DNA of 64,000 nucleotides from Sulfurimonas sp. (GTDB lineage Bacteria; Campylobacterota; Campylobacteria; Campylobacterales; Sulfurimonadaceae). The translations under genes and the position numbers were made by a program. The DNA lies in contig NZ_JBNKRX010000036.1 of NCBI RefSeq assembly GCF_050296975.1, forward strand, positions 40,019-104,018, in the 5' to 3' direction. Shown here one piece after another: positions 5,898 to 23,697 of this stretch. Position 1 is the stretch's first letter; the number at the start of each line of letters is the position of its first letter. The notes under the pieces were generated by a model. That model was not told the origin of the DNA. It ran no database searches and worked only from the letters and a program-made list of their open reading frames with translations.

Positions 5898-5901
5898 ATA
5901 T

Positions 5902-6132
5902 TTATCTCTCCCTACTAAAATCATCTCTCACAGCTTCTTGACCTCTCTCCATGAAGAAAAGAATAGTTGAAGAGAGAGTAGGTCTGTTTAGCATTTTTTG
6001 CATTTTCACTAAATAATCATACTCGTCTTGAGTTAGGGCTACAGTAATTCGTTTCTCCCTTTTTTGCTCATCATCAAGCTTTGGTCTACCAACACTTCTA
6101 TTTTTTCTTTGGTCTTTTTCTTGTTCAGTCAA
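5902..6132 (-). CDS. Small DNA-binding regulator (GRP motif plus ribbon-helix-helix-like)
   Basis: 'VGRPKLDDEQKREKRITVALTQDEYDYL'. The likely start is TTG at 6132 after AAAGGA; the track starts at 6189. Confidence 0.65.
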   Translation of the reverse strand: MTEQEKDQRKNRSVGRPKLDDEQKREKRITVALTQDEYDYLVKMQKMLNRPTLSSTILFFMERGQEAVRDDFSRER

Positions 6133-6312
6133 ATTATATCCTTTGTAAAAAGTATATAGTATCACATATAAAGAATATATTAACATCACTAAACTATTTA
6201 AATCTACTCAAATATATTTATTGAGTAATAATATAATAAAATGATGCAATAAATTAATAAATACATAAGTTATTATACTTTATCATTCATTAAATCATTC
6301 AAGGAGTCCGAA

Positions 6313-6540
6313 ATGAGTAGTGAAGAAAAAGTAATATTTGATACTTTATACACTAAGTATAAAAAGATGGCTATCTCTAAAAAAGAGATGTCTCGTGAAA
6401 CAGGTATGAGTATATCTACACTTGATAGACTCAGACGTGCAGGACATGGATGTTCATATATTCAGCAAGGTGTTGGAGATGTGTCATATCCTTTAATTGA
6501 ACTAGCAAAATATTTTGCTAATACTATAAAAACACTCTAA
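6313..6540 (+). CDS. Excisionase/AlpA-like HTH DNA-binding protein
   Basis: 75 aa, 'ISKKEMSRETGMSISTLDRLRRAGHG', AAGGAG SD. First gene of the mobilization operon. Confidence 0.7.
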   Translation: MSSEEKVIFDTLYTKYKKMAISKKEMSRETGMSISTLDRLRRAGHGCSYIQQGVGDVSYPLIELAKYFANTIKTL

Positions 6541-6551
6541 GTAAAAAAAAC

Positions 6552-6920
6552 ATGACAACTACAGAGTATCAAAAAGCTTACAAGAAAAGTTATAGTCAAA
6601 AAAATAAGATTGTAACTTTTCCGTTAAGCATTCCATTTTATGATGAACTAAAACGAAGAGCTATACTTTTTGATGTAAGTGTAAACACTTACGCAAAAAA
6701 TATAGTTAATGGTTCACTCAACAGCTCTTCTGTAACAATTCTCACTCAAGAGAAACAAGAGATTATTAATGAATATATCCGTATATCAAGAGGGATTGCA
6801 AATAATATCAACCAAATAGCTCATCAAACTAATATAACTGAGCAAATTGATATAAGTATACTCATTAATGCGCTCAAAAACTACGAAGAAGAGTTCAAGA
6901 AATTAATCCAAAAAATCTAA
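6552..6920 (+). CDS. mobC: Relaxosome accessory protein MobC
   Basis: 'ISRGIANNINQIAHQTN' matches the MobC G(N)NxNQIA motif. Lies directly upstream of the relaxase. Confidence 0.82.
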   Translation: MTTTEYQKAYKKSYSQKNKIVTFPLSIPFYDELKRRAILFDVSVNTYAKNIVNGSLNSSSVTILTQEKQEIINEYIRISRGIANNINQIAHQTNITEQIDISILINALKNYEEEFKKLIQKI

Positions 6921-6923
6921 ATT

Positions 6924-7745
6924 ATGATAATAAAATCTATGAGCAGAAAAAGTAAATCTTTTTCTCAACTCTATGACTATTTTTGTCGTGAAGAAGCTAC
7001 ATATAGATTTTCACGAAACACTTATTCTAACGCATATAACAGAGAAAAAACTCTCAAAGAGTTCTACAATAACGCAAGGTATTTAAAAGGTGCTAGAGGT
7101 AATTTATATCTTTATCATGAAGTAATATCTTTAGACAAAAATAATCTCTCATCCGAACAAGAACAAAAAATACTTTTAGATCTTGTTGATAAGTATATCA
7201 GCCTAAGAGCAATGTATCATTTAAGTTTTGGAGTAGTACATCAAGATAAAGATAATACTCATGTACATTTGATGATAAGTGCCAATGAAATAGGTGGTTT
7301 AAAACGTATTCGCTTATCAAAAAAAGAGTATGCCTATATTCAAAAAGAACTGGAAAATTATAAAAATCAAAGATACCCTGAGTTAAGAAAAACAGCCTTG
7401 TATCAAGGTAGTAAAAATCTATCTAAAGCTAAACAAAAAGAGCAAGAAATAACTATCAGAGGTGCTACAACTATTAAACAGGAGATATATAACAATCTTC
7501 AAAGTGTATTCAATAAAGCAAGTTCATTAACATATCTCAATAATCATTTAAAAAATCTTGGTTATAAAGTCTATAAAAGAGGTAAAACTATCAGTATTAC
7601 TTACGAGGGTAAAAACTATAGATTAAAAACTCTTGGACTGGAACAACAATACAAAAACACTCTTTCAAAACTTGAAAGAATAAAAGAAAGAGAAATTAAA
7701 CGGGATAAAACTAAAGAAGATAGAAATATAAATAGAGATAGATGA
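6924..7745 (+). CDS. Relaxase/mobilization nuclease (MOBP-like)
   Basis: 'YHEVISL' and the HUH motif 'VVHQDKDNTHVHLMISAN'. Confidence 0.85.
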   Translation: MIIKSMSRKSKSFSQLYDYFCREEATYRFSRNTYSNAYNREKTLKEFYNNARYLKGARGNLYLYHEVISLDKNNLSSEQEQKILLDLVDKYISLRAMYHLSFGVVHQDKDNTHVHLMISANEIGGLKRIRLSKKEYAYIQKELENYKNQRYPELRKTALYQGSKNLSKAKQKEQEITIRGATTIKQEIYNNLQSVFNKASSLTYLNNHLKNLGYKVYKRGKTISITYEGKNYRLKTLGLEQQYKNTLSKLERIKEREIKRDKTKEDRNINRDR

Positions 7746-7792
7746 TATTCAAGAAAAACAAGAACTAATAGAATTTAGCTAAAATATGCACT

Positions 7793-9295
7793 ATGGAAAT
7801 TTTAGCTCTTATATTTATAACTTTTATCGCTTTTATGGGTATGAACGGACTATTTAGAAAAATGGGTATTAAAGCACTCAATCCGTTAGGCTTGATAGTA
7901 TCTTTTTTAACATCTCCACCACTTAAAAGTGATGGGATGATGAATAAACAAGAAGAGTTAAAAATATTTTCACGCTTTAATGACGGTCTTTTAATAGATG
8001 GAAAAAAGAAAAGACTCTCTTTAAAAGAGAGTTGTAACCACTTGGCACTTTTTAGCAGAACAGGTGGAGGAAAAACTACTAGCTATGTAATTCCAAATAT
8101 CTTTAAATTAGCTTCTGAAAACTGCTCTATGGTAATTACTGACCTAAGTGGGGAGCTATATGAAAAAACAAGCGGATATTTAAATGCTCAAGGCTTTAAA
8201 GTATATGTACTTGACCCGAAAGATTTAGAGAGTTCTATACGATACAACCCTCTTGAATATGCTAAAAGTTCAATCTCAATTGATATGGTTAGTGAAATAC
8301 TTATAGCTTCTTCAGGTCTGAAAGGTACAAGGGCAGAAGACAAAATATGGAGTGATGGAGCAAAGCATATAATCTCTATATTTATCAAGGTACTTAAAGA
8401 GACAAACGACAAACGATTTATCAATCTAGCAAATGTTAGATATATGCTAAACAATTTTGGAAGAAACGGACAGGCTCTTGATGAGTTCGTGAAGACGTAT
8501 GCAGATGATAAAACCTTTGAAGAGTACAAAGGGTTTGTCAACGGTAATGAAAAAACTATTCAAAGTTTTATAGCTACTGCAAATGCTTCATTAAGTCCTA
8601 TCGGGATTAATGATAATCTTGAAAAACTTACTTACTCTCACTCTATAGACTTTAAAAAATTTAGAGAAGAAAAATCAGTCGTATATATCCGTATTGAACA
8701 ACAATATCAGGAACAATATAGCTTTTTACTCAATCTCTTTTATGCTCAACTCTTTAATGAGATGATGGATAGACTGCCTACACAAAAAGATTATCCACTT
8801 TACTGTTTATTAGATGAGTTTGGGAATATGCAGATACCTAGATTTTCTTCAATCATTACAACAATTAGAAAGTACAAAGTCTCTATCTCTATTATCTTAC
8901 AAAATATCAATCAATTAGTAGCAAAATACTCTGAAAATGAAGCTAAGACTATACTTGATGGTGGTATTGCCTCAAAACTAATATATAGCGGTGCTGATTT
9001 AGATTTAGCAACACAACTTGAAAAGATGTTCGGTCATAAAGAGAGTCTAAAACAACAAGCTAATGGAACTCATCACTATGAAAAAGAGAGTGTTATGAGT
9101 GTAAGTGAAATAAGAACTATGAAAGATAATGAAGCTTTATTTGTGTATGCGAATAAAAAGCCTTTAAAGCTAGATGTAAAACCATATTTCAAAGATATGA
9201 TGTACAACAGTTATTCAAGATTAGCACCTTATCAATCAATGCAAAATACCTATGCTGATAGGGTGGTTTATGTTGATTTAGAAAATGTGGAGTAA
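7793..9295 (+). CDS. virD4: Type IV coupling protein (VirD4/TraG family)
   Basis: N-terminal TM, Walker A 'SRTGGGKTTSYVIPN', 'TDLSGELY', Walker B 'LLDEFGN', 'RKYKVSISIILQNINQL'. Confidence 0.9.
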   Translation: MEILALIFITFIAFMGMNGLFRKMGIKALNPLGLIVSFLTSPPLKSDGMMNKQEELKIFSRFNDGLLIDGKKKRLSLKESCNHLALFSRTGGGKTTSYVIPNIFKLASENCSMVITDLSGELYEKTSGYLNAQGFKVYVLDPKDLESSIRYNPLEYAKSSISIDMVSEILIASSGLKGTRAEDKIWSDGAKHIISIFIKVLKETNDKRFINLANVRYMLNNFGRNGQALDEFVKTYADDKTFEEYKGFVNGNEKTIQSFIATANASLSPIGINDNLEKLTYSHSIDFKKFREEKSVVYIRIEQQYQEQYSFLLNLFYAQLFNEMMDRLPTQKDYPLYCLLDEFGNMQIPRFSSIITTIRKYKVSISIILQNINQLVAKYSENEAKTILDGGIASKLIYSGADLDLATQLEKMFGHKESLKQQANGTHHYEKESVMSVSEIRTMKDNEALFVYANKKPLKLDVKPYFKDMMYNSYSRLAPYQSMQNTYADRVVYVDLENVE

Positions 9296-9298
9296 TGA

Positions 9299-10846
9299 GT
9301 GGAAAATGTAGACTTACTTTTAGATACTGTTGGTATATACAATAAATGTGAAGTGATTGAAATATTTGGATATGACAACAAGAAAAAAAAAGCTTTCAAT
9401 ATTTATACATTAGTTATTTTTGAAAACACTAAACAGATAGAAATTGAAGGCTTATTAACTGATAAACTAAATATCTTTTCTTCTGTATCAAATATTAAAT
9501 GGGGTATAAAAAGAAGAATAGTAAGAATAAGCAAAATAAAGAAGTTTTTTGAATTATTGAAAAATAAAAATATTTACAAAATAGATAAAGAATTATCTGT
9601 TGGACAATTAAAATATTTAGATATGCAATTTATACAAGCAAATGATTCTTTTATCAAGCCTCAGTTCAATCACATATTAAAAAACAACTTTTATAATGGT
9701 TCATATGTACTAGAGTTTTTTGATGAAGAAAAAAGTAATAATCAGTTTTTACTAGAGAATGCCGTATTGCTAAATGCTTTTAGTGAAACTATTGGAGAAA
9801 TATTGCCAATTAAACTTGCTAATCTGTCTGATAGATTAGGAAATGTGGTTTTTCAATTTCCTATTAATATCTTCAAGCTTGAATATACTACAAATAGGTT
9901 GGGCAATCCACCACGATATTCTGGATTAAATATTGAGATTTCTCCAAAAATAAAGAAATATGACATTACTAATTTAGAGATTAGAGTGTATGAAAATAAT
10001 GACAATATCATTGTTCGTCAATATTCAATAATGGTTCAAAATAACTTAACTGAAATCATGTTAGATGATTGTTTTGGAACTAGACTTGAAGTAATGGATA
10101 AAGATACATCATTGTTACTTTATAGAAATAAATTCTCTATTATGAAAGAATTTAATTTTCAGATGAATTTAATAAGTCCTCAAGATAGAGTTTTTAAGTT
10201 AAATGGTGATGTGCAAAAAATTCCAATAGAGCATAATTCAACTAACAGTATTGGAAAAGCAAATCAAAAAAAGAAAGAATTTAATGAGTGGATTCATGAC
10301 AGAAAATATGAGCAAGAACTCAAATATTTAGAACAAACTAAGTCATTTATTCAATACTATGGTAAAAAAGATGAAAATATTAAGGCTTTAAATGACATAA
10401 GGTTTTTAATTAATCAATATGGCAATAATGGGGTCTATTTATGGGACCCGTATTTAAGTGCTACAGATATTAAAAATACATTGTATTTTAGTAAATTTTC
10501 ATATGTTGAATTAAGAGCGATAACAGGTTTAAAACAAGATTCACAAAAATCACAAGTAATTTTTGATATGCAAAATGAATTTAATCAAGATGATAAACAG
10601 TTTTTATTTTTAAATTTAGAAGTGAGAGGAAAATATGGCACAAATGGTTATGAATTTCATGACAGATTTTTAATATTTCCTCTAGAAAAACCTAAAGTTT
10701 GGTCATTGGGTATTTCAGTTAATCAGCTAGGAAAAGCACATCATATTTTACAAGAAGTAAAAAATGCTCAACATATTTTAAATGCATTTAATCAATTATG
10801 GATAGGACTAGATAAAAGGGAATGTTTAGTATGGAAGAGCAATTGA
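9299..10846 (+). CDS. VPA1262-family-like protein with C-terminal PLD-like domain
   Basis: C-terminal 'GVYLWDPYL...HDRFLIFP...KVWSLGISVNQLG'. The family name is from recall and was not searched. Confidence 0.6.
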   Translation: MENVDLLLDTVGIYNKCEVIEIFGYDNKKKKAFNIYTLVIFENTKQIEIEGLLTDKLNIFSSVSNIKWGIKRRIVRISKIKKFFELLKNKNIYKIDKELSVGQLKYLDMQFIQANDSFIKPQFNHILKNNFYNGSYVLEFFDEEKSNNQFLLENAVLLNAFSETIGEILPIKLANLSDRLGNVVFQFPINIFKLEYTTNRLGNPPRYSGLNIEISPKIKKYDITNLEIRVYENNDNIIVRQYSIMVQNNLTEIMLDDCFGTRLEVMDKDTSLLLYRNKFSIMKEFNFQMNLISPQDRVFKLNGDVQKIPIEHNSTNSIGKANQKKKEFNEWIHDRKYEQELKYLEQTKSFIQYYGKKDENIKALNDIRFLINQYGNNGVYLWDPYLSATDIKNTLYFSKFSYVELRAITGLKQDSQKSQVIFDMQNEFNQDDKQFLFLNLEVRGKYGTNGYEFHDRFLIFPLEKPKVWSLGISVNQLGKAHHILQEVKNAQHILNAFNQLWIGLDKRECLVWKSN

Positions 10847-12309
10847 CGGAACTTTTAAAAAATTCATTAGAGTCTATAGGTAATATACAACCAAACATTC
10901 ATATTCTAGATAAGTATTATGAACTATTTGATGAAAAAGACTATAAAAAGCTTTTTTTAGACAATAATATCAATGAAGTTTATAATGACATGCAAAAGTA
11001 TTATTCTATAGATTTAAATTATTTGAACTATGGACATAATGAAATAGAAATGCAAAAGTTATATCAAGAATTGATATTTGCAGTGTTTAATACAGAAGAT
11101 ACTCATTCAAAAATAAAGTTAATACCACTAGTTGTCTTTTTAGATAAAGATTATATCTTATATGAGTTTTTATACGAAAAAGATTTTTTTACCAATATAA
11201 ATGAGTTTAAGAGTTATTGTCTTGATATACTCCATGGATTTCAAGTAAATTTAGATTTAACTAATACTCCTATGAATCATTGGGAAAATGATATCGTTCA
11301 TGCTTATACTAATGGTATTAAAACTTTAGATTTTAAAAATATTTATAAGTTTATCGATTCTTTGCAGAGAGGTATTGGAATAGTATATCATCCATATATA
11401 GATTTTTTATCTTATATCTCGAATAAACTTTTTTTTGAAGATTTATGTAATATATTAGAGAATCAAGAAACTCTAAAAATTAAATATTTAACACATGCAT
11501 TGACGATAGAAGATAGATTGAGGTTAGCCAATAAATCAATCAGTGACTTGATGCTTTTTGAGACCATTAGAGAGACAGTATATTTTAAATCTAATAATCA
11601 ATATAGTTTAAATTTGCTCAAGCCTGAGAGGGAATTACTTACAAATCTAATTGTTAAAATAGCGAATAATGAAGTGATATGGAGTCAATTTTTAGATTAT
11701 TATTTAGAATATCCATCTAGAGCAACACAATTGTTCTCTCCATTAGGATTGGCATTAGAGCAAATAGATCAAAGTAAAGTACTAATAATAGGTGAAAAGA
11801 TAAAAATTGACAAGTTCTTTGATAATGATAGTAAAGAAGCTTTAAATAGTTGCTTTGCATACCTGAAAGATGAAAAATTAAAAAAAAGACTAATTGAAAA
11901 TATTTTCATTAGATGGATAGATTTTGTAGATAATTATGATGATACTCTTGTAAATATAATATTATCGGATGTGATTGATATTGTTTTGATGTACGTTAAT
12001 GAATACATGGATAAAAAAGACATTATGAATAATATAAATCATACTATTTACGATATTGAAGAAATTAACAATAGATGGTTTATTGATGCAACAGACAAAG
12101 ACAACTCTATGTTTAAATTGTTATCAAAACTTTTTGTTTATGGTTTTTTCATCAAGCAGTATGCTATGCCTGATATAGAAATAAAAATGAGAGAATTTGT
12201 AAACTCAAGAAAGTTTTTTGTTGAGAATGGTAATCAACATGAAATGAGTACAGCGGAATTGTTCTATCAAAATATTTTTAATAAAAATATGGATGAATTA
12301 AATGGGTGA
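10822..12309 (+). CDS. Hypothetical helical protein, 495 aa, overlapping the upstream gene
   Basis: Long ORF overlapping both neighbours. No motif recognised. Confidence 0.75.
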   Translation: MFSMEEQLTELLKNSLESIGNIQPNIHILDKYYELFDEKDYKKLFLDNNINEVYNDMQKYYSIDLNYLNYGHNEIEMQKLYQELIFAVFNTEDTHSKIKLIPLVVFLDKDYILYEFLYEKDFFTNINEFKSYCLDILHGFQVNLDLTNTPMNHWENDIVHAYTNGIKTLDFKNIYKFIDSLQRGIGIVYHPYIDFLSYISNKLFFEDLCNILENQETLKIKYLTHALTIEDRLRLANKSISDLMLFETIRETVYFKSNNQYSLNLLKPERELLTNLIVKIANNEVIWSQFLDYYLEYPSRATQLFSPLGLALEQIDQSKVLIIGEKIKIDKFFDNDSKEALNSCFAYLKDEKLKKRLIENIFIRWIDFVDNYDDTLVNIILSDVIDIVLMYVNEYMDKKDIMNNINHTIYDIEEINNRWFIDATDKDNSMFKLLSKLFVYGFFIKQYAMPDIEIKMREFVNSRKFFVENGNQHEMSTAELFYQNIFNKNMDELNG

Positions 12310-13078
12310 TATTAATTATATTCAACAGTTCATGAATGAACTTTCAAATATGGATGTAGCTAATTTCATATTTGTAGCACTTTTATTTTCTGTACCATTC
12401 TATTTTTCAAAAAAGTCAGAAAGCTTATTTTTCCATTCTTTTTATAGCCTCATGGGAATTTATATGCTTTTTACAATGGATGACCCTAGAGTGATTTATG
12501 ATTTGAAAATGCTTGTAGGTTTAGGACTTGTAATACCACAGACTAGATTCATTATTCAGTTTACAAAAGACACAATATTTACTATCAAAATGATGACTGC
12601 AAATACCTACTATTTCTTTGTAACTTTATATTATAAAGTACTTAGATTTATAAATTGGATTCGTTCATTATATGTAATGATTCAGAGCTTTTTTAAAGGT
12701 TTTGAAGCAAAAAGTAGGGCAGATAGTAGAGATAAAAAAGAAGAATATCAAGAAAGCAATAATCAGCAAACTTACGAAGATTATAAACAAGAGCAGAAAC
12801 AAAAAGATTCATCACAACAAAGAAGTTATGAAGAACCAAAACAAGAACAAAAGACATATACCCAACAAGATGATGAGTATGCGAGATTTTATAGTGAAAG
12901 TGTTTATACAGTTTTAGGAGTGAATGTAGATGATGATTATAACACTGTAAAAAAAGCATATAGAAAATTAGTTAGAGAATTTCATCCTGATTTACATCCT
13001 GAAAATATAGAAAAATTCACAGAAATTACACAAAATATCAATAATGCTTGGGAGAAAGTCTCAAGTTGGAAAAAATAG
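12302..13078 (+). CDS. Membrane-anchored J-domain (DnaJ-like) protein
   Basis: N-terminal TM helices, Q/E-rich linker, C-terminal 'YTVLGV...VKKAYRKLVREFHPDL...INNAWE' with the HPD motif. Confidence 0.88.
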   Translation: MGDINYIQQFMNELSNMDVANFIFVALLFSVPFYFSKKSESLFFHSFYSLMGIYMLFTMDDPRVIYDLKMLVGLGLVIPQTRFIIQFTKDTIFTIKMMTANTYYFFVTLYYKVLRFINWIRSLYVMIQSFFKGFEAKSRADSRDKKEEYQESNNQQTYEDYKQEQKQKDSSQQRSYEEPKQEQKTYTQQDDEYARFYSESVYTVLGVNVDDDYNTVKKAYRKLVREFHPDLHPENIEKFTEITQNINNAWEKVSSWKK

Positions 13079-13099
13079 ATTATTTCATAACTATTTACT

Positions 13100-13441
13100 A
13101 TGAGAGAAAAACTAAAACAATTACTAGAAGAGAGTCATTGAAGTATAACTGAGGAAGTTATTAAGGAAGCTATGGATTATCATAGCCCAAAAGAGTTCTT
13201 TGAAGATTTGTTGCAATACGGTTGTGAGTCGTGAATGGTACCAAGTTTGATATATTATAAAGATACACATGAGTTTTATGATAAACACTATGAAGAGATA
13301 GAAGAGTTAAGGGCAGAATTAGAAGAGCAGGGTATAGAGATAAATATTCCAAGTCATAGTGATTTGAAAAACTTTTTTGCATGGCTTAGTTTTGAAGAGA
13401 GAGCTAGAGAATTGTATGATGATTTAGAGATGAGTAGATAA
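13100..13441 (+). CDS. Small acidic protein, 113 aa, code 25 (the track shows only 13235-13441)
   Basis: MREKLKQLLEESH*SITEE...LLQYGCES*MVPSLIYYKDTHEFYDKH. Reading TGA as Gly gives 'GCESGMV..LIYY.DT..FY', a motif I recall from small phage/MGE proteins. Two TGA, ends TAA. Confidence 0.72.
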
Positions 13442-13478
13442 AAAAATTTGATTAAATTACATTTTAACATTATGATAT

Positions 13479-13622
13479 ATGCAAAATTACGAAGACTATA
13501 AAAAAGAATTTCAAAAATTATATCCTGATATTTCAGAAGATTTTTTGAAAGAATCATATGATTTAAGAATTGAATTTTGGAGATGATTAATAGAAAATTT
13601 TGATAATTTTTTTGATTTATAA
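13479..13622 (+). CDS. 47-aa peptide immediately upstream of the recombinase, code 25
   Basis: MQNYEDYKKEFQKLYPDISEDFLKESYDLRIEFWR*LIENFDNFFDL, one TGA, ends TAA 11 nt before the recombinase ATG. Confidence 0.5.
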
Positions 13623-13633
13623 CTAAATAAATT

Positions 13634-15184
13634 ATGAAGGCAATTATATATTATAGAAAGTCAACTGATAGAGATGATAAGCAAGCTAACTCACTTGAAC
13701 ATCAATTAGAAAATTGTAAAAGAGTCGCTTCAAATTATTCTTTAGATGTTGTAAAAGAGATTTGAGAGAGTAGAAGTGCAAAAACAGAATGAACTAGAGC
13801 TTGATTTAATGAAATGATACAACTATGTAAATCTAAAAAAATTGATTTTATAATAATAGATGAGCCAAAAAGACTATCAAGAAATAATCTTGATACATCA
13901 AGAGTTATAGACTTACTTGATAAAGAACAAATTAAATGAATATTATGAACTTCTAGGGAGTATAGAGCTGATAATTCAAGAGATAAGTTTTTGCTTCAAT
14001 TAGATTTATCATTATCAAAAATGGATAATGAGGATAGAAGTAAAGATGTAAGAGATAAGATGAATACTTTTGTGAAAAATAAGAAAAGATTTCCTTGAAA
14101 AGCTCCTTTTTGATATAAGAATATAACGATAAAAAAGTGACATAAAGATATTGTTGTAGATAAAAAAGAAGCAAAAATAGTTAAAGAGATTTTTCAACTT
14201 AGATTAGAGGGAAAAGCCTATAATACAATTGCTTTGTATTTAAAAAAGAAATATAAAAAAACTATAGAACTGAACTATACAGCTCAAAGAATTCATAAAA
14301 TAGTATGTAATAAGTTTTATTATTGAATTTTTCAATGGGCAGGGCAAGAAATAATATGAGGACATACTCAACTGGTATCAAAAGATATGTATGATAAAGC
14401 TAATTGACTTTGAAAAGGAGTGCATGAAAAAATCACTACTTTGAGAAAAAGGGAAGCTCAATCTTACTATTTGAAGTGACTTATACAAGATAGTTCATGA
14501 ATGACATTAACTTCTTATGTAAAAAAAGGAAATATTTATTACATTACAAAATCAAGTAGTGAATTAACGATAAATATTAGTGAAAATTTATTATTTGAAA
14601 AGCTATGAGAAATAATAAAAAGTAGTGAAGCTTCTAAACTTTGTTTTGAACAAGTAGATAAACAAAATATTTTGAAAATCATTAAAGATGAAAAATTTGA
14701 TGTATGAAACCAAATAATTGATATTGAAAATAAAATCCTAATTTTAGAGAATAGAAAAGATACTCTACTTGATTTTCAATTGGATGGAAAAATAGATTAT
14801 GAAACATATCTATCAAAGAATAATAAATTAGTAGATGAAATTAAAGATTTACAAGAACAAAAAAAGCATTTAAAAAATGATGATTCTGAGCAAAAGTCCC
14901 AAATATTAATTGAACTCGCTTGAAGCCTTTATGGAAGCTATTTTAGAACAAATAATCAGTGAAAAGCATATATTATTAGAAAGCTGGCGATTGAACTTTT
15001 TGTAAACAACAAAAAAGAGCTTAAAATAGAGGATAGTCCTATATTTAAAAGCTCAAAAATGCTCAATTTCTCTTTTGGTACTTCCAAGGGGTTTGATATT
15101 AGAACTTATTTAAGAGAATTGTCAAAAATAGATTTAGAAGAATTAAAAGAGTTTTATGAATTTGTAAAGAGTTCGAGATTTTAA
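13634..15184 (+). CDS. Large serine recombinase, 516 aa, readable only with TGA=Gly (code 25)
   Basis: Full hand translation: catalytic 'IIYYRKST..D.Q..SLEHQ', 'E*TRA*FNEM', 'DEPKRLSRN', 'FP*KAPF*YKN', 'NKFYY*IFQWAG...*GH', then a coiled coil. 18 in-frame TGA versus 9 GGN codons, no internal TAA/TAG. Confidence 0.92.
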
Positions 15185-15194
15185 AAATAGCAAG

Positions 15195-15239
15195 AGGTCG
15201 GAAATGCGAGACTCGAACTCACAACCCCATGTTTCAAAA
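15195..15239 (-). repeat. Degenerate tRNA-Pro 3'-half (att-like), copy 1
   Basis: 40/45 identical to 16614-16658. Start of a diverged direct repeat of about 120 bp (about 15196-15320 versus 16615-16740). Confidence 0.75.
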
Positions 15240-15475
15240 GAGTTGAAATATTCTTAAGAATAATAAAAACTAAAAGTCAATAGTTTATAAAGCTGTAGTT
15301 TATCCTTGTTTTATACAAATATGTCATAGTTTCGGGCTAGATATATGAAAACTTTTTGCAAAAAGTTTAGAGTATCTTAAGTATCTTATTGATTTGTAGA
15401 CTTGCAATTTCTCAAAATATCATTATTTTTACATATAAGTATAATTGTTTTCATTTTATTTATTATTTTATTTGT

Positions 15476-16549
15476 ATGTCTAAAAAGAATTTAGAAAAAA
15501 TCAAGTATTTATTTAATGCAAGTTGAAGGATTGGGCAAGATTGATATTTAATTTATTATATGTCAGCTTTTGTAGTGAGTTATTCTTTATCAATAGTAAT
15601 GTATCTATATTCTAGTACTTTACTTGCAATCTTTGTTTTAATTTTATGATTTATATGATTATACATTCATGTAAATATGTCTATAAAAAGATGTCATGAC
15701 TTATGAAGAAGTTGATGGTTTATTTTGATTCCTATTTATAATCCTATAGCATTAATATTTTCAAAGTGAGATGCAGAAGATAACGAATATTGAAAGAAAA
15801 TAAATAGAAAAACAAATATTATTTTAATGGTCTTATGAGTATTTATGTTTTTTCTACTATTCTCATTAAAGTGAACATTTGATGAACTTAAACAAACATA
15901 TAATATAGAAAAATCTTATGATAATAATGAATATGCAAATAATATTTGTATATCTACATTTTGAATAAATTCAAGATATGCTTGAGAAATTGAAGATTGA
16001 GAATACATATGTGATTGTAAGGAATGATATGAATTCTGATGAGATAATTTGGATGAGTGTATATTGATTTCCGAAAGCTTTTCTAAAAATATATTTACTA
16101 TAAGTAATTGATTCTATATAAATAATGCTAATGAATTGATTGATTCAGAGTATAATTTAGAGTATTTAAAAGAAATAAATGAAGAAGCTAAAAAATGATT
16201 TTTAACAAGTAAATGAAATTATACTTTATTTATGTCGGATGAATTAGATTTGCAAACCGCTACTATGTATGCAGATGAAAAAAAACTAGAGCAAAATCAA
16301 ATAACTTTGAAATCATTTGTTTTGTGAATGGGATGAAAAAATATTATCAGCAATATCAACAAGGTATGATGAGTTAATTTTTTTACTTTCAATTATGAAG
16401 TTAATATTGATGGAGAAGATTATTATTATTACGCTGTATTCTGATTAATTAATGATACTTTTGAAAGTATATATATTTTTTGATTTGATAAGAGTTTTGT
16501 TGAAAAAGATTGAGTTTTTTTAATAAATAATTTAAAAATAAATAATTAA
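15476..16549 (+). CDS. DUF805-domain membrane protein with Cys-containing C-terminal region, 357 aa, code 25
   Basis: 'YLFNAS*RIG', 'KRCHDL*RS*WFILIP...K*DAEDNEY*' give the DUF805 RxHDxGxSGW...NxYG signature when TGA=Gly; also 'CDCKE*YEF**DNLDEC'. About 26 TGA by hand count, ends TAA. Confidence 0.85.
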
Positions 16550-16613
16550 TTACGTGATTGAATTAAAATAGCAGTACTTAGTAAGTAGTGCTATTCCTAC
16601 TAAAAATTACAAA

Positions 16614-16658
16614 TGGTCGGAAACGCGAGACTCGAACTCACAACCCCACGTTCCCAAA
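16614..16658 (-). repeat. tRNA-Pro(UGG) 3'-half from anticodon loop to CCA (att-like), copy 2; not a complete tRNA
   Basis: Reverse complement TTTGGGA-ACGTG-GGGTT-GTGAG TTCGAGT CTCGC-GTTTCCG-A-CCA: anticodon loop, T-arm, acceptor 3' strand. No 5' half adjacent. Confidence 0.82.
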
Positions 16659-16749
16659 GAATATAAAATATCTTAAGAATTATTGAGAAAGAATGTCAAT
16701 ACCTTATAAAGCTGTTGTTTATCCTTGTTTTATGAAATATCTAAAAATT

Positions 16750-16780
16750 AAACACTTACTAAAATTAGTAAGTGTTTTTT
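16750..16780. terminator. Hairpin or terminator candidate
   Basis: AAACACTTACTAA-AATTAGTAAGTGTTT followed by a T-run. Confidence 0.55.
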
Positions 16781-16896
16781 TTATTTTGGTTTTAAGATTA
16801 GAACTTATATAACTGAATTATAAAAAATAGATTTGGAAGAATTAAAAGAGTTTTTATAATTTTATTAATAATTAAATTTTACTTTCAAGTAACTGT

Positions 16897-18423
16897 CTAT
16901 TTAATATCAATATCTTCATTTTCTTTATGTATATTCATATTTAATGACTCTTGCATAAATTTCATCATTTGTTCTTCATTCCAATCTTTCATAGGATAAC
17001 GCTCTTTATAGAATGTATCAAAGTTTTCATATTTTGCATTATTTTGTAAATAAAAATCAAATTCATCTATGGATAGGACTAAGTAATTAGAATGGTGAGC
17101 CAAAATTTCTGGAAATCGACTTACTATGAGATATTTAAATTTTTTTCTTATATTATATTTTTCATGATTTTCAAGAAGATGTTCATATCTTTGATTAACT
17201 TTCTGTTCCCATTCATTTTGCAATTGTTTTAATCTTTGATTTAATTGTTCAAAATTACCAAAATAAACATTAAGTGGTAATGAATGATTTTTAGCTTCAA
17301 TAAGAATATCATAATCATCATTTTTAAGTATTAAATCTATATCTCCAAGTTTATTCTTTCTTTTATATAATTCAATCCCTGTAGCCGAATGACTAAAATT
17401 GTATTTTTTAGCTATTTGAATGATATCATCTACAAAAAAATCAGACATAATTTGTTTATGTTTTTCTTTATATTTTATGTTTTCAATGATTGAATAATGG
17501 AAGTTTGTGAACAAGCTATCTAGTAAAAGTTCAGGAACAATAATATATTTATTCTTGATTTTTAATAGTGGTCTTCTTTCAAGATAATGATAGTTTAATT
17601 CAAAAGATTTAAAATCAGATTTTTTGAATGTAAAATTGCGTATAAATGACATTCCTTTTTTTCCAAAGGTATGCAGGACATAGTTCTCATCAACTATGTA
17701 AGATTTTATAACTTGTCTGATAGTTTCAATAGATTGAACATCAAGGTTGCCATTATCAAAATAAGTCATATGTTGTTCATTATTTTTAATATTTACTAAA
17801 TAATTGTTCAATAACTGTTTAATATTTACACTGATTTCTTGAATTGATAATCCAAAAATATCTTTAGATATTTTATTATAGTTTGTATATTTTTTTTTAA
17901 AGTTTTCTAATAGTTCATCAGGTTGTAAAGGAGTTTTATTTTGGCTAGCTGTAAACTCTTCCAAGCGTGAATCGTATTGAATAGCCTTTTGTTTATTTGG
18001 ATTTTTAGTTAAAGATTTTGTAAAATCTATTCTAGCATATCTATTATTTTCCCCTTTCATCTCAAAATCATCAATTAAAGTAAAGAGTGATGAATACTCA
18101 TGAAAATTATGAATACTATTCCCAATTTTTGTAAGAAATAAAACTTTATCTTTTTCTATCTCATAATCGTTTGTTGGTATAGATATATTTGAATATTTAT
18201 AAATACATGAAATAATGTATTTATAAACATCGGTACCTCTATCAATACTCATATGAGTTAGGTCATTTAAATCGTTTATCTTTAGTGTTCTAATTGTATG
18301 AATATAATATAAAAAATAAGCAAGTTCCCCAAAAGTTGAATTTTTACAGAGTTCTTTAATAATAAAAAGTCTTTTATTAAGTTCTTCTTGAATTTTAAAA
18401 AGAGCAGTTTGTTCATTGTTCAT
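16897..18423 (-). CDS. Hypothetical protein, 508 aa, with C-terminal PD-(D/E)xK (NERD-like) nuclease motif
   Basis: 'KLGDIDLILKNDDYDILIEAKNH'. Standard code, ends TAG. Confidence 0.65.
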   Translation of the reverse strand: MNNEQTALFKIQEELNKRLFIIKELCKNSTFGELAYFLYYIHTIRTLKINDLNDLTHMSIDRGTDVYKYIISCIYKYSNISIPTNDYEIEKDKVLFLTKIGNSIHNFHEYSSLFTLIDDFEMKGENNRYARIDFTKSLTKNPNKQKAIQYDSRLEEFTASQNKTPLQPDELLENFKKKYTNYNKISKDIFGLSIQEISVNIKQLLNNYLVNIKNNEQHMTYFDNGNLDVQSIETIRQVIKSYIVDENYVLHTFGKKGMSFIRNFTFKKSDFKSFELNYHYLERRPLLKIKNKYIIVPELLLDSLFTNFHYSIIENIKYKEKHKQIMSDFFVDDIIQIAKKYNFSHSATGIELYKRKNKLGDIDLILKNDDYDILIEAKNHSLPLNVYFGNFEQLNQRLKQLQNEWEQKVNQRYEHLLENHEKYNIRKKFKYLIVSRFPEILAHHSNYLVLSIDEFDFYLQNNAKYENFDTFYKERYPMKDWNEEQMMKFMQESLNMNIHKENEDIDIK

Positions 18424-18549
18424 AACTAGAATATCTCCTATTGATTGATATAAATGATTGTATTCAATTAAGGCAAACTGCTTATATTATTTGTGATAAA
18501 AATAATTAAAGGTATACTTATTTAAAAATAATATTTAAATTGGAAGAGT

Positions 18550-21500
18550 ATGGCAGTTTTTGAAATAGATAATGAAGATATAAAAAGATTAGGGGAAGTA
18601 GAGTTACCAAAACTTGTGTATCAAATAATGTATTATGAGATAGCAAAGCTAAACTTATTAAATCAGGGATTACATATATCATTAAATACAAAAACCGGTG
18701 ATGGTGGTTCAGATGGAGAATTTAATATTTTTAATAAACAGATACCTGCTAACCACCAATTTTTACCAAACAACAGTATTGTATTCCAATTTAAAGCAGC
18801 TGAAATAGGTGCGAAAGCTTGGTTTGAGAAAGAAATTATAGATGAGAAAACAAAAGATTTAAAACCAAAACTAAAAGAATATATCCAGCAAAACTATACA
18901 TATATTTTAATTACCAATAGAACAGATTTACCAGCAAGTAACCTTGAGGCTAAAGAAAAAATTTTAAAAGATTTGTTTAATGATTATGGATATTCAAATG
19001 TGTCAGTTAAAATTATTGATTTAACAAAACTTGCAGAATGGGCAAATAGTATTCCTCAAATATATTTGACACAAAATCCTAATACAAGGTACTTTGAATT
19101 ATTTGAAAGTTACGAAAATGAAATACGACAAAATAGTGAAGATGTTGAATATGTGAATGATGAAAAAAGAGAAAGTGATATATTACAAATTAGAGATAAT
19201 ATAAATAACACTCTTAGAACAGGAACATCTTCATTTATTAGAATAGAGGGATTCTCAGGAATTGGAAAAACAAGGTTTGTTTATGAAGCATTAAATAATG
19301 ATGATTTTAAACAATTGGTTATCTATGTACAAATGTATAATGATGAACTTTTTGGAGATTTGTTATTATATTGTAAGAAACGTGCGGAAAACACTCAAGA
19401 ATTAGTCATTTTTGTCATTGATGAGTGTTCTTATGAAGATCATATCCGTATATGTAGAGGACTAAAACAATATTCAAATTTAGTAATAATTACAATTAAT
19501 CAACTTTTATCAGAGCAGGATAAAGTTAACTGTAAAGAAGAATATAGAATTACTTTAGAGGGTTTAAGTGAAGAGAAAAGTGTTGAATTGATTCAAAAAG
19601 TCAATCCAATTTTAGATAATGATATAGCTAAAAAAATTGCTTATTATACGGAAGGTTATCCAAGACTTGCATACTTTATGGCTAGTTCTTATGATGTTGA
19701 ATCTGGAGATACACATAGTGCTGATGAAAAGTCACAATTATTAGATAAAACACTTTCTACGATTACAAATGATGCAGATGAAATTGTTATTTTACAAGCA
19801 ATTTCAATTTTTAAGCTTTTTCCAGATAATGATGATGTGAAAATATATAAAAAAATTATTTTTGAACATTTTGATATTAATATAGCTAAAGCATCCGTCA
19901 TAATTCAAAAGTTGATAAAAAAAGGCATTATTAGAAATGCTGGAAGATTTTTGTATATAAGTCCAAGACCTATTTCTATTCATCTATTTAATCAGTTTCT
20001 ATCTACATATGATTATGAATTTATTGATGAATTATTTATAAAACTTGATAATCAAGGGTTAATGAATAGTTTCTTTGAAAAATTACAAGGTATTGAATTT
20101 GATTCAAGACAACACAAGGAGTTACTTTTTCGTATTCTATCGAAGCTCACATATGAACAAATAAATGATGAGTTAGGTTCAAAAATCTTCTATTCTCTTT
20201 GCTTAAAAGATAGAGAATATTCCATAGGTATGTTAACAAAATTATTTCATGATAAATCAACAGATGAGTTACTACAGTTTAATGAGGGGAGAAGGTATAT
20301 AGTATTTGCTCTTGATAAACTTATCTCTTTTGAAAATACATTTAACGATAGTGCTAAAATTCTATTCAGACTAGCCATGGCTGAAAATGAATCTTGGGGC
20401 AACAATTCAAAAGGAATTTTTAAAGATTCTTTTACATGGATACTGAGTGGAACAGAAGTAAATATTGTTGATAGATTGAACTTTTTAAAGGAACTATATA
20501 AGGAGTATTCGGACAAAGAAAGTAGGATGTTTTTATTAGATAGTTTATCTAATGCATATCCAAAGCATAGTTATATTGGTAGTCACAAAAATAGTGAAAA
20601 TTTTCCTGAAAATATCCCTGAACATTATCGTCCAAATACTCAAGATGAAATTGATGAATATTTTGTTAAGCTCAAAGAGTTAATAGCATTTTTGTATGAA
20701 CATTCCTCTGTTTATTTGAAAGGTAAAATTTTAAGTGATTTAATTTCAACGCTAAGAACTCTAATAATATATAAGCAAATTGATACATGGATTCTTGATT
20801 TTATAGTGCATAACTTAGAGGATAATACCCATTTAAAAGGAAAGTTTTTAGAAGAAATCTCTTTTACGTTAAAGCATGATAAAGGCGATAAATCAGATGA
20901 AGTATTAAAATATCTACACACTCTTAATAATAAAGCTCTTAGTACTGAAAATATTGATGAAGTAAAAGAGATGTTTTATTCAACTGAACAATATAGATAT
21001 CATGATGAAGATGTATTCAATCAGCACTGTAGATTATTAGCAGAAAATCTTTTTAAGACTAAAGATTTTGATATATTATTAAATAGTCATACTTCTAATA
21101 CTTTTTTTATAGGTAAAGAACTTGCATTAATAGATAGTGAAAACACTCTATATGATGATATTTTAGCTCTTATGTCAAAACTAGATAAAAACTCTAATAT
21201 GAGATTTATAACTGGGTATATATTTAACAATAAGATGAGTGATGAATCACAATTCAAGAAATTATTTGATGAAATATATAACAGGTTAAATGATAAGAGT
21301 TTAATGTTTGAATTTATTTATGCGTCTAATGGAAATAATGAAATTATTTTTGAATATTTGTTTTCACTTCTTGAAAAAAAAGAGATAGCTTCTGAAATGT
21401 TAGAACGCTTGATTTATGGTTTTTGGTTACGAGAAGTAAAAGTAGATGATTTTGAAAAGTTTATAGATAAAATTAATTCTATTATTGAAAATAAGTGTGA

Positions 21501-22278
21501 TAGTTTTCCATTATGTAGACAGTATATACAACAAAATAAAAATAAACACTTGATAGAAAAATATTTACCTTACTATATAAGCAACGATATATTAAAATGT
21601 AAAAATGTAAGAATAGACCGTGATATAGTGAGCATGACTGAAAGTTACTTGTCTTATGGTTTAGAATTTTCAACAACCTTATTAGAAAAAGTTTGGGAAT
21701 CAGTTCTAATAGAATTTAAGAATAATGGAAATTTTGAACGTAGTGAATTTGATAGTGTATATAAAATATTAGAGAAGTATCCTGATTTTTTTTGGAATAA
21801 ATTAAAAGATAATTTAGATGAAGTACAACCTTCTAAATATCCAACTTATAGTACTTATCTTCATTTTACTCAAGGCGGATATTTAGCTAGACATTATTCA
21901 AATTCTATTTTTAGAAATATAGATACTAAAAAGATTGTGGAATGGTTAAAAACCACTCCATTTAAAGATGCAAAATACTTAATTGCTGATTCACTTAATA
22001 TAGATTTTCAAAGCAATACTTTACCTGAAATAGTAATCAAGTTACTAGAAGAATATCCTAATGATATTGATTTGTACTATAGTATTACTGTTAAAAGTGA
22101 AGGGTGGACAGGGTCTTATGTACATGTGGCAAATGAAAAGATATCTAATGTTGATAAAATGCTTGAAGATAACAAAGATAATAAAAAAGTGATGGATTTT
22201 TTACTTTGGGCTAAAAAAAGTTTTGAATCTCGTAAAGAAAGAGCACAGAGAGAAGACGAAGAAAGAAATATATATTAA
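18550..22278 (+). CDS. Large STAND-like NTPase with N-terminal restriction-endonuclease-like domain (Avs-like defence candidate)
   Basis: N-terminal 'TGDGGSDG...IVFQFKA', Walker A 'GFSGIGKTRF', Walker B 'FVIDEC', 'EGYPRLA', and a long helical C-terminus; 1242 aa. Confidence 0.72.
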   Translation: MAVFEIDNEDIKRLGEVELPKLVYQIMYYEIAKLNLLNQGLHISLNTKTGDGGSDGEFNIFNKQIPANHQFLPNNSIVFQFKAAEIGAKAWFEKEIIDEKTKDLKPKLKEYIQQNYTYILITNRTDLPASNLEAKEKILKDLFNDYGYSNVSVKIIDLTKLAEWANSIPQIYLTQNPNTRYFELFESYENEIRQNSEDVEYVNDEKRESDILQIRDNINNTLRTGTSSFIRIEGFSGIGKTRFVYEALNNDDFKQLVIYVQMYNDELFGDLLLYCKKRAENTQELVIFVIDECSYEDHIRICRGLKQYSNLVIITINQLLSEQDKVNCKEEYRITLEGLSEEKSVELIQKVNPILDNDIAKKIAYYTEGYPRLAYFMASSYDVESGDTHSADEKSQLLDKTLSTITNDADEIVILQAISIFKLFPDNDDVKIYKKIIFEHFDINIAKASVIIQKLIKKGIIRNAGRFLYISPRPISIHLFNQFLSTYDYEFIDELFIKLDNQGLMNSFFEKLQGIEFDSRQHKELLFRILSKLTYEQINDELGSKIFYSLCLKDREYSIGMLTKLFHDKSTDELLQFNEGRRYIVFALDKLISFENTFNDSAKILFRLAMAENESWGNNSKGIFKDSFTWILSGTEVNIVDRLNFLKELYKEYSDKESRMFLLDSLSNAYPKHSYIGSHKNSENFPENIPEHYRPNTQDEIDEYFVKLKELIAFLYEHSSVYLKGKILSDLISTLRTLIIYKQIDTWILDFIVHNLEDNTHLKGKFLEEISFTLKHDKGDKSDEVLKYLHTLNNKALSTENIDEVKEMFYSTEQYRYHDEDVFNQHCRLLAENLFKTKDFDILLNSHTSNTFFIGKELALIDSENTLYDDILALMSKLDKNSNMRFITGYIFNNKMSDESQFKKLFDEIYNRLNDKSLMFEFIYASNGNNEIIFEYLFSLLEKKEIASEMLERLIYGFWLREVKVDDFEKFIDKINSIIENKCDSFPLCRQYIQQNKNKHLIEKYLPYYISNDILKCKNVRIDRDIVSMTESYLSYGLEFSTTLLEKVWESVLIEFKNNGNFERSEFDSVYKILEKYPDFFWNKLKDNLDEVQPSKYPTYSTYLHFTQGGYLARHYSNSIFRNIDTKKIVEWLKTTPFKDAKYLIADSLNIDFQSNTLPEIVIKLLEEYPNDIDLYYSITVKSEGWTGSYVHVANEKISNVDKMLEDNKDNKKVMDFLLWAKKSFESRKERAQREDEERNIY

Positions 22279-22320
22279 TATAAATTTATTTAATAGTTTG
22301 AAGAATTAATTATATTGAAT

Positions 22321-22349
22321 AATAGGAAAACTTTTAAAGTCTTCCTATT
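22321..22349. terminator. Bidirectional terminator candidate between convergent genes
   Basis: AATAGGAA...TTCCTATT inverted repeat. Confidence 0.55.
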
Positions 22350-22353
22350 GTTT

Positions 22354-23082
22354 TTATCTAATATATAAACCGCAAGAAGAAACACTGTCTTTGTATTTTG
22401 TAAATTCAGAACCAAATATTTGCTCTAGTTCTTTATCTTCATTTCTAGCTCTCCTTAGATTGATTAATGCAATAATTAATGGGAATAATAAAAGTAGGTA
22501 GCTAGTACCAGCTATTGCTGTTCCAAAAGCAAGTAAAAATTGTGATACATATATTGGATGTCTAAGACGAGAATAGATACCATTAGTTTTTAACTTTTGG
22601 TTGTTTTTATCTGTATATATGACTATGTTAGGATTCCAATAGCCATTAATTACTGCTCTTGCTAATGCTGCCATTCTTAGACCATAAAACATGATAATTA
22701 ATCCAATACTGGGTAGAAGATATGTAATTAGAAAGATATATTTATCTTCATATTTTTCTTGAACATTAGATGAAATATTATTAAGTATTGCTACATCATC
22801 AGATATTTTAGTGTTTATAATATCGTTAGGGTTGATATCGAACCATAATAAAAGTTGATTTAGAAGAACTATAGATACACCGACTAATTGAAAAGATATG
22901 TTGAAATTTATTTTTTCTTCTTTTTCTGCACTTATCAATTTTGAATTATATTCATCATGTTTACTTGCATACCAATATAAACTAATGAATACAAGCCATA
23001 AGAAGTAGGCAACTCTCAATGGAATAGGTATTCCATAATATAGATATTCTAAAGATTCTATTATTAGTTCTAAGATATTCAC
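22354..23082 (-). CDS. Isoprenylcysteine carboxylmethyltransferase (ICMT/PEMT) family membrane protein
   Basis: Multi-TM, 'LKTNGIYSRLRHPIYVS', 'EDKELEQIFGSEFTKYK'. Confidence 0.82.
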   Translation of the reverse strand: MNILELIIESLEYLYYGIPIPLRVAYFLWLVFISLYWYASKHDEYNSKLISAEKEEKINFNISFQLVGVSIVLLNQLLLWFDINPNDIINTKISDDVAILNNISSNVQEKYEDKYIFLITYLLPSIGLIIMFYGLRMAALARAVINGYWNPNIVIYTDKNNQKLKTNGIYSRLRHPIYVSQFLLAFGTAIAGTSYLLLLFPLIIALINLRRARNEDKELEQIFGSEFTKYKDSVSSCGLYIR

Positions 23083-23126
23083 ATATAATCCTTTTAAGAA
23101 AAAAATTAGGTAGAAAGAAATTCTAC

Positions 23127-23685: not shown

Positions 23686-23697
23686 ATAACTTATTTT

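Follow-up and report, generated by a model that had tools for sequence, protein, structure and literature searches.

A change of genetic code is commonly regarded as a firewall against horizontal transfer. Serine integrases such as Bxb1, PhiC31, the Listeria integrase A118/LI and TP901-1 are proteins of about 500 amino acids (aa). Their N-terminal catalytic domain carries the serine nucleophile and is followed by a long helix E, the recombinase domain, a third domain rich in beta structure and a coiled coil, and their attachment site attP lies beside or within the integrase gene. Integrative mobilizable elements carry a module of MobC, relaxase and type IV coupling protein (T4CP), a terminal tyrosine integrase and short imperfect repeats, and empty sites are found in sister strains. 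Among phages, Liu et al. 2023 (mBio) predicted that TGA-free phages infect Gracilibacteria and discussed recoded phages in standard-code hosts (PMC10746230). The recoded phages and prophages (TAG to Gln, TGA to Trp) have in-frame stops in a subset of their genes, and the code gates expression (PMC10746230). The code-11-compatible phages of Gracilibacteria and Absconditabacteria avoid in-frame TGA, use back-up stops and are workable across the code boundary (PMC10746230). The locus described here resembles each of these in part. It lies in a window of 64,000 nt, the whole stretch of DNA analysed, from Sulfurimonas sp. (assembly GCF_050296975.1, contig NZ_JBNKRX010000036.1, positions 40,019 to 104,018 of the forward strand). 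It is a large serine recombinase (LSR) gene, written with TGA as glycine, within an integrative mobilizable element, here also called the island, in which some genes are free of TGA and others are rich in it.

The LSR gene was located as follows, with all positions given in window coordinates.

13634..15184, + strand: large serine recombinase, 516 aa with TGA read as Gly, attP form, with the C-terminal tail GFDIRTYLRELSKIDLEELKEF

The open reading frame (ORF) starts with ATG, ends with TAA and comprises 516 codons if TGA is read as sense, with no in-frame TAA or TAG. Eighteen in-frame TGA codons are present, at aa 44, 53, 57, 102, 105, 155, 160, 169, 231, 242, 258, 260, 282, 289, 325, 358, 430 and 443. 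The GGN codons number nine (GGA 6, GGT 1, GGG 2), so that TGA makes up 18 of 27 Gly codons, and there is one TGG. Read in code 11 the gene halts after 43 aa, the first in-frame TGA being codon 44. An earlier note on this DNA, made from the letters alone, had described a complete hidden LSR with these counts and this early stop, and the description held. No code-11 ORF of at least 90 aa was found in 13079-16896. The NCBI annotation of the source metagenome-assembled genome (MAG) contains only fragments of 35-49 aa at the LSR locus. The full 516-aa LSR was called on two short Logan contigs (L128, L129), while the same DNA is fragmented in the NCBI MAG annotation (L127). The gene is called in one annotation and broken in the other because the outcome depends on the code applied to the contig by the gene-calling pipeline.

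A Pfam scan of the table-25 translation, the check proposed in the earlier note, matched Resolvase (5.6e-19, aa 3-149) and Recombinase (PF07508; 1.9e-13, aa 178-258, after helix E). All of the motifs quoted in that note were located (YYRKST at 6-11, RLSRN at 80-84, PGKAPFGY at 154-161 and NKFYYG at 226-231). The catalytic residues R8, S10, R80 and R83 were invariant in 37 sequences. The Pfam scan gave no match to the zinc ribbon Zn_ribbon_recom (PF13408), and there are no Cys/His pairs in the third domain (aa 262-336), Cys being present in the LSR at 28, 65, 225 and 337 only. The structure model used was the AlphaFold model of the homologue P0032 (57% identical to the window LSR; pLDDT 78) and not of the window protein. 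With this model Foldseek gave full-length serine integrase matches (9dxd, E = 2e-19; also Bxb1, PhiC31 and LI integrase). The model has a beta-hairpin domain at 286-318, and therefore the third-domain fold seems to be kept in the LSR without zinc ligands. The coiled coil named in the earlier note was supported by proxy, as long helices at 338-413 of the same model. A PDB sequence search with the LSR protein gave only a weak match to the catalytic domain. The LSR thus differs from the solved serine integrases in being only 13-16% identical to them, in lacking zinc ligands and in its TGA = Gly spelling.

A protein search with the LSR gave 201 homologues, the best being 69% identical over the full length, and one was named as a Candidatus Gracilibacteria recombinase. 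Some homologues are annotated as 'recombinase family protein' in Gracilibacteria MAGs. The earlier suggestion that the LSR was possibly novel does not stand for the sequence family, which is already represented in databases, but does stand in that no member has been characterised.

The meaning of TGA was examined in 28 homologues read at the DNA level over the 18 window TGA columns (503 cells). TGA was found 196 times, GGN 136 times, TGG once and other codons 170 times, in agreement with the expectation that these columns would align to Gly. Columns 160, 169 and 231 were exclusively TGA or GGN, and columns 57, 102, 242 and 282 were TGA or GGN in 26-27 of the 28 homologues. A TGA-free homologue with a GC content of 55% (L036) had GGN at 7 of the 18 columns. 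The sole true Trp column of the LSR (235, TGG) was W or F in homologues and never G. Since TGA interchanges with GGN and not with TGG at the codon level, it is read as Gly in the LSR. On the sequence level the ORF was shown to be an intact large serine recombinase gene written in genetic code 25 (TGA = Gly). A reading of TGA as Trp (code 4) was rejected, as the W seen in most database homologues is TGA translated by code 4 and TGG filled 1 of the 503 cells.

In a scan of one genome per species the LSR family was found at 29 loci. About 20 of the 29 lie in MAGs of Gracilibacteria or other Patescibacteria, where the flanking ORFs are nearly all TGA-rich, and the closest relatives were thus from code-25 taxa, as the earlier note had expected. 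Seven of the 29 lie in code-11 genomes (a Sulfurimonadaceae MAG, a Campylobacterales MAG, Arcobacter, Agarilytica, Colwellia, Neptuniibacter and Motiliproteus sp. MSK22-1). In all seven the LSR is intact, has 7-24 TGA and is placed amid TGA-free genes. Motiliproteus sp. MSK22-1 (L027) is a RefSeq isolate carrying the mosaic. A scan of metagenomes gave at least 13 additional mosaic contigs with the LSR. In a neighbour-joining tree the code-11-hosted LSRs were nested inside Gracilibacteria diversity in host-coherent groups, and the deep branches were all from the candidate phyla radiation (CPR). Bootstrap values of 100% were obtained for window + L003, for L013 + L014 and for the gammaproteobacterial clade. 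The LSR family was shown to be native to Gracilibacteria.

The attachment site of the LSR was located within its own gene.

15074..15110, + strand: LSR attP core, inside the LSR 3' end, in which TTTGGTACTTCCAAGGGG is an antisense mimic of the Gracilibacteria tRNA-Glu 3' end

Aligned with the 3' end of tRNA-Glu, the core TTTGGTACTTCCAAGGGG (15074-15091) agrees at 12 of 13 positions. At the Gracilibacteria loci the 3' end of the LSR gene overlaps a tRNA gene in antisense, mostly tRNA-Glu(CTC/TTC) and also Arg, Trp, Lys and Cys. This antisense run into the tRNA marks the LSR as the enzyme that integrates elements at that tRNA. All code-11-hosted LSRs have the conserved unrecombined tail FGTPxxFDIRTFxxxLSxIDLEELKxF. 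The Gracilibacteria-integrated LSRs have FGTP in common, followed mostly by antisense-tRNA read-through (TENGTPVSALRG...). The natural attB of the window LSR is predicted to be a Gracilibacteria tRNA-Glu gene. Compared with known serine integrases, the putative target would be unusual in being the 3' end of a tRNA gene, and the last ~25-35 codons of the LSR would be altered upon integration. Its attP being unrecombined, the LSR has done nothing in the Sulfurimonas chromosome. Two adjacent fragments had been put forward as att candidates. The first (15076-15320) was upheld, as the attP core lies within it (~15074-15110). The second (16614-16860) is not its partner, and holds a decayed duplicate of the LSR tail and a tRNA-Pro half-site of another (tyrosine) integrase module.

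One metagenomic contig of 8.9 kb (L054) carries, in order, TGA-free relaxase, T4CP and DnaJ genes, an LSR with 22 TGA, and a complete antisense tRNA-Glu(CTC) gene overlapping the end of the LSR. Past the tRNA-Glu gene are rplK (5 TGA), a VirB4/TraG-like ATPase (29 TGA) and a SpoIIE phosphatase (21 TGA). The arrangement of tRNA-Glu and rplK is syntenic with at least 15 Gracilibacteria loci. In at least seven of these loci the VirB4/TraG-like ATPase gene follows further on, which places the integration site beside the cell's type IV secretion ATPase. Positions 1-5121 of L054 are 99.92% identical to L051, a contig from a sister sample, and the identity ends directly after TTTGGTACT, which is antisense to AGTACCA, the 3' end of the tRNA. 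Beyond TTTGGTACT, L051 continues with the usual LSR tail and then a TGA-free ORF6N gene. The L051/L054 pair has the pattern that would be expected of attP x attB giving attR. The sequence common to both sides of the junction is too short for L054 to be explained as a chimera. The attL and the empty attB of the L051/L054 strain were not recovered. As far as can be judged from the assembled contigs, one sister element was shown to be integrated at tRNA-Glu in a Gracilibacteria chromosome (L054). L051 was also considered as a circular element and this was rejected, its ends not overlapping. In Gracilibacteria the attachment locus is tRNA-Glu(CTC)-rplK (L054 5115-8947; at least 15 CPR loci).

The host of the window element uses code 11. 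The 90% clusters to which the window's core proteins belong are named Sulfurimonas, and in the right-hand 34 kb, where TGA serves as a stop, 97% is covered by code-11 ORFs. Over the island, code-11 ORFs cover 63%, compared with 85% when TGA is read as sense. A code-25 cell has tRNA-Gly(UCA) and no release factor 2, and the carrier is not of this kind, as both the Sulfurimonas core genes and the island genes stop at TGA. In two sister assemblies of the same population (L043, L045) the site is empty and the gene at 1255-2292 directly adjoins the exonuclease-family gene at 29605-30381. The empty site delimits the island to ~2378-29622 (27.2 kb), inserted at the 3' end of the exonuclease gene. The island and the modules that move it are as follows.

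2371..29628 (~27.2 kb), no strand: whole integrative mobilizable element, with the imperfect 13-nt cores TTCGAATTCCATC (2371-2383) and TTTTAATCCCAAC (29616-29628)
28307..29422, - strand: tyrosine integrase, TGA-free, used in the code-11 host, at the right end of the island
6552..9295, + strand: mobilization module of MobC, relaxase and VirD4-type T4CP, with no in-frame TGA

No mating-pair genes were found in the island. It was classed as an integrative mobilizable element because it has MobC, a relaxase and a VirD4-type T4CP without mating-pair genes. An integrase accompanies the relaxase and T4CP, att repeats form its limits and its empty site is known. The TGA-free tyrosine integrase, and not the LSR, inserted the island into the Sulfurimonas chromosome. 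The LSR itself catalysed no insertion here and still has an unrecombined attP. Unlike usual integrative mobilizable elements, the window element has a second integration module that is readable only in another code. In the window this module is the LSR, and in a related JGI contig (L007) it is a TGA-rich tyrosine integrase with a tRNA-Pro half-site. Other Sulfurimonas contigs (L008-L012) carry a tyrosine integrase that is 96% identical, at the same exonuclease 3' site, with unrelated cargo (insertion sequence elements, an SH3 protein). The 3' site of the exonuclease gene is, judging from these contigs, a recurrent hotspot.

The island genes divide into two sets by their use of TGA. ORF6N, a TPR protein, the relaxase, T4CP, orf515, orf495, DnaJ, orf508, orf1242, an ICMT-like gene, orf260 and the tyrosine integrase are TGA-free and contain 181 GGN in total. 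MobC and orf105, each below 150 aa, are likewise TGA-free. Four TGA-free genes use TGA as their stop (relaxase, orf515, orf495 and DUF3024), and in the relaxase, orf515 and orf495 it is followed by TAA or TAG within 1-10 codons. The TGA-rich set consists of orf144 (4), DUF7222 (2), a small ORF (1), the LSR (18), DUF805 (26), orf558 (18) and bPH_2 (7). These genes, with the DnaJ gene that precedes the recombinase module, are placed as follows.

4244..4678, + strand: orf144, 4 TGA, at the same position in sister elements
12302..13078, + strand: DnaJ-domain protein, TGA-free, conserved left neighbour of the recombinase module
13100..13441, + strand: DUF7222 gene, 113 aa, 2 TGA, conserved upstream partner of the recombinase module
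13479..13622, + strand: small ORF, 47 aa, 1 TGA
15476..16549, + strand: DUF805 membrane protein, 357 aa, with TGA in 26 of 29 Gly codons
24873..26549, + strand: orf558, 18 TGA, conserved TGA-rich component of the family
27818..28273, + strand: bPH_2 membrane protein, 7 TGA, with homologues in Gracilibacteria genomes

Codons were also counted per gene family over the related elements.

Tyrosine integrase family: 0 in-frame TGA, 194 GGN
T4CP family: 1 in-frame TGA, 388 GGN
MobC family: 0 in-frame TGA, 14 GGN
DnaJ family: 0 in-frame TGA, 62 GGN
orf105 family: 0 in-frame TGA, 27 GGN
orf144 family: 25 in-frame TGA, 17 GGN
DUF7222 family: 23 in-frame TGA, 16 GGN
orf558 family: 101 in-frame TGA, 70 GGN
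LSR family: 1434 in-frame TGA, 1031 GGN

More than 20 related elements, found in Campylobacterota and Gammaproteobacteria and in one case in an isolate, keep this gene-by-gene code split. The gene order (tyrosine integrase)-ORF6N-orf144-orf105-MobC-relaxase-T4CP-DnaJ-LSR...orf558 is common to the window, L013, L014, L056 and L109, whose proteins are 40-78% identical. In two gammaproteobacterial islands (L027 486-1808 in Motiliproteus; L018 1062-2429 in Colwellia) a TGA-rich T4CP/HerA-like ATPase with 7-11 TGA is present in addition to the TGA-free T4CP. It may be a coupling protein for the code-25 host.

Unlike the recoded phages, the window element has TGA to Gly, encodes no suppressor tRNA, release factor or synthetase, and includes the integrase among its gated genes. 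Where the phages encode a suppressor tRNA, this element seems to rely for decoding on a second host (Gracilibacteria). Unlike the code-11-compatible phages, which have no in-frame TGA, it keeps a TGA-rich set, it is not a phage, and its family is integrated in both code types. No phage structural domains were found in Pfam scans of the window proteins. A suppressor tRNA in the island was ruled out by ARAGORN over the 64 kb and by Rfam at E <= 1 over 1-30000, the latter giving no tRNA-like RNA and only a chance CRISPR-DR match. It is improbable that Sulfurimonas itself reads the TGA-rich genes through a suppressor tRNA supplied in trans by the host, a helper plasmid or a phage, the code then being a timing switch. 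Such local recoding would have a precedent in the recoded phages and prophages of standard-code hosts (PMC10746230), and it would fit the conservation of the TGA-rich genes in code-11 genomes. However, the island is fully delimited and without a tRNA, core and island genes end in TGA, and TGA is specifically Gly, which is the code-25 assignment. The signs of a second host also speak against it, namely an attP that mimics Gracilibacteria tRNA-Glu, a repeat (D1, described below) that is a relic of a Gracilibacteria-type tRNA-Pro half, and the integration of L054 in a Gracilibacteria chromosome.

Selection on the TGA-rich genes was estimated from L007, whose 9-kb backbone is 95-96% identical in nucleotides to that of the window. 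Comparison of the two copies gave 34 synonymous and 13 nonsynonymous differences in orf144 and DUF7222 together, with a ratio of nonsynonymous to synonymous rates (dN/dS) of 0.066 (p = 1.6e-16 vs neutrality). Their TGA-free neighbours have dN/dS of 0.06-0.25. The codons between TGAs, which lie outside any code-11 frame of useful length, have 8 synonymous and 2 nonsynonymous differences. LSR pairs among the code-11-hosted copies have dN/dS of 0.06-0.25, similar to pairs within Gracilibacteria. By these estimates both the TGA-free and the TGA-rich genes were shown to be under purifying selection.

These values bear on whether the TGA-rich genes are dead cargo, that is, whether a Sulfurimonas island passively took up Gracilibacteria DNA (e.g. 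from a lysed attached cell) whose untranslatable passengers have not yet decayed. The LSR cannot be translated past codon 43 in this host and the island is without a suppressor tRNA, both as passive uptake would have it. The relatives of the LSR and of bPH_2 are Gracilibacteria genes, and the code-11-hosted LSRs are nested in Gracilibacteria diversity as several clades, which is in line with the same origin. Against this, sister elements of 40-78% protein identity have these genes in the same places, again rich in TGA, and two copies that are 95% identical gave a dN/dS of 0.066 for their TGA-rich genes. Every full-length LSR examined from a code-11 host is intact and keeps the attP-form tail, and the gammaproteobacterial LSRs form a monophyletic clade with dN/dS <= 0.06. 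Passive arrival, which the earlier note had left as one option, was therefore considered unlikely, since the positions are conserved in many diverged sister elements and dN/dS is ~0.07.

The window comes from a MAG, and there are no fewer than eight code junctions (>=8) within 27 kb, as might be produced if code-25 pieces had been mis-joined to a Sulfurimonas contig in assembly or binning. The DnaJ-DUF7222-LSR junction was nevertheless reproduced by Logan assemblies from two runs (L128, L129), and another contig (L005) is 100% identical across bPH_2, the integrase and core genes. The JGI contig L007, from another study, has the same backbone, and the same mosaic is present in a RefSeq isolate genome (L027). 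An artefact of this type was considered extremely improbable.

The reading that is favoured, and held to be probable, is that code-11 bacteria and the code-25 Gracilibacteria living on them serve the element as alternating hosts, with the code as a host-specific switch and the LSR as the code-25-side integrase. In Sulfurimonas the TGA-free genes alone would be expressed and the LSR would halt at codon 44. After transfer to a Gracilibacteria cell the TGA-rich genes would become readable. The LSR could then recombine its own attP, the tRNA-Glu mimic at its 3' end, with the chromosomal tRNA-Glu gene. The genetic code would in this way select which integrase and which cargo are expressed. The broader statement, that this is a family of mobilizable elements which routinely crosses the code-25/code-11 boundary with two gene sets and two integrases, expressed only (TGA-rich) or also (TGA-free) in the host that each serves, and uses the code as a host-specific expression switch, is put forward with somewhat less assurance and is only slightly favoured.

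Several observations weigh against alternation between the two hosts. L054 is the only contig with a mosaic element in a Gracilibacteria chromosome, and the ~45 other Gracilibacteria loci are all TGA-rich around the LSR, with no Mob module within 10 kb. L054 and L051 have only 50-58% protein identity to the window element, so that they speak only indirectly for a past of the window copy in a code-25 cell. The element has a relaxase and T4CP yet no mating-pair genes. The host cell in which the purifying selection acted cannot be located from the sequences alone. The scan for a tRNA(UCA) covered the 64-kb window of the Sulfurimonas genome, in which ARAGORN found no tRNA.

To our knowledge, the hosts of Gracilibacteria are almost wholly unknown. 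The element family is a sequence-based sign that Gracilibacteria come into contact, physically and genetically, with named code-11 bacteria, of which Motiliproteus sp. MSK22-1 is cultured. If alternation is true, the elements mark Gracilibacteria-parasitised bacteria, namely Sulfurimonas, Arcobacter, Colwellia, Neptuniibacter, Motiliproteus and Agarilytica. It seems that the family lives at either side of this firewall between codes and profits from it, with the functions specific to each host written in that host's code. Sieber et al. 2019 had suspected that a Gracilibacterium associates and exchanges genes with Colwellia (PMC6851277). According to a 2025 study, relaxases are rare in Patescibacteria and the type IV secretion systems there are monoderm-type (PMC12102498). 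No description of a mixed-code integrative element was found in the literature searched, whose coverage was partial and hence not proof of absence. About 6 kb of the island (~22%) is blank or in short fragments under standard pipelines, and the annotation of other proteobacterial genomes probably overlooks comparable code-25 genes as a rule. The LSRs form a large clade of putative tRNA-targeting serine integrases without zinc ligands, which may be of interest as tools.

Two pairs of repeats, D1 and D2, flank the DUF805 gene. D2a (15089-15163) is the LSR's own tail. The other copies are as follows.

16788..16862, + strand: D2b, decayed copy of the LSR tail (P' arm), 84% identical to D2a, without the 12-nt tRNA-Glu-mimic core and preceded by a hairpin
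15182..15314, - strand: D1a, decayed 3' half of a Gracilibacteria-type tRNA-Pro(UGG) with a promoter-like arm
16601..16733, - strand: D1b, tRNA-Pro(UGG) 3' half from the anticodon loop to CCA, 81% identical to D1a

D2b looks like an attL relic, as it is without the 12-nt core and has the hairpin ahead of it. D1 is most readily read as the att relic of the TGA-rich tyrosine-integrase module present in L007. That contig has the TGA-rich tyrosine integrase in place of the LSR, D1a and DUF805, followed by the same D1 + D2 remnant. This replacement indicates that the family swaps code-25-only integration modules (LSR/tRNA-Glu or tyrosine integrase/tRNA-Pro). The tyrosine integrase with its tRNA-Pro half looks like a second, interchangeable module of this kind. 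A tRNA-Pro(UGG) half was also found at L007 12236-12370, and L039 11531-11607 was compared. Two other readings of the repeats were rejected. D1 as a mini tRNA or tmRNA had no support as a folded RNA, D1 being a tRNA-Pro 3' half. The 133-nt and 75-nt repeats are not attL and attR of the LSR, as their order is swapped (D2-D1 vs D1-D2) and D2b lacks the core. DUF805, the most heavily recoded gene of the window, lies between both tRNA-Pro half-site repeats in the manner of a captured cassette.

Four large TGA-free ORFs (515, 495, 508 and 1242 aa) without a Pfam match are located at 9299-12309 and 16897-22278, and the mosaic contig L050 carries a homologue of orf1242 at 56% identity. A weak Rfam match to CRISPR-DR6 at 23396-23425 (23.9 bits, E = 0.73) was well under the gathering score and is probably due to chance. 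To the left of the island (window 1-1250; L042 vs L043 6357-9430) a restriction-modification region varies among strains. L043 has a full RE_AlwI and an N6_N4 methylase, and the window strain has a shorter RE_AlwI call with Rha-like and S24-peptidase-like genes. The distance from the tRNA-Glu-mimic core to the tRNA-Pro half is ~119 nt in the window (15077-15242), similar to the ~106 nt between tRNA-Glu and tRNA-Pro in a Gracilibacteria chromosome (L039 11425-11607). The attP region may have descended from a captured chromosomal attR.

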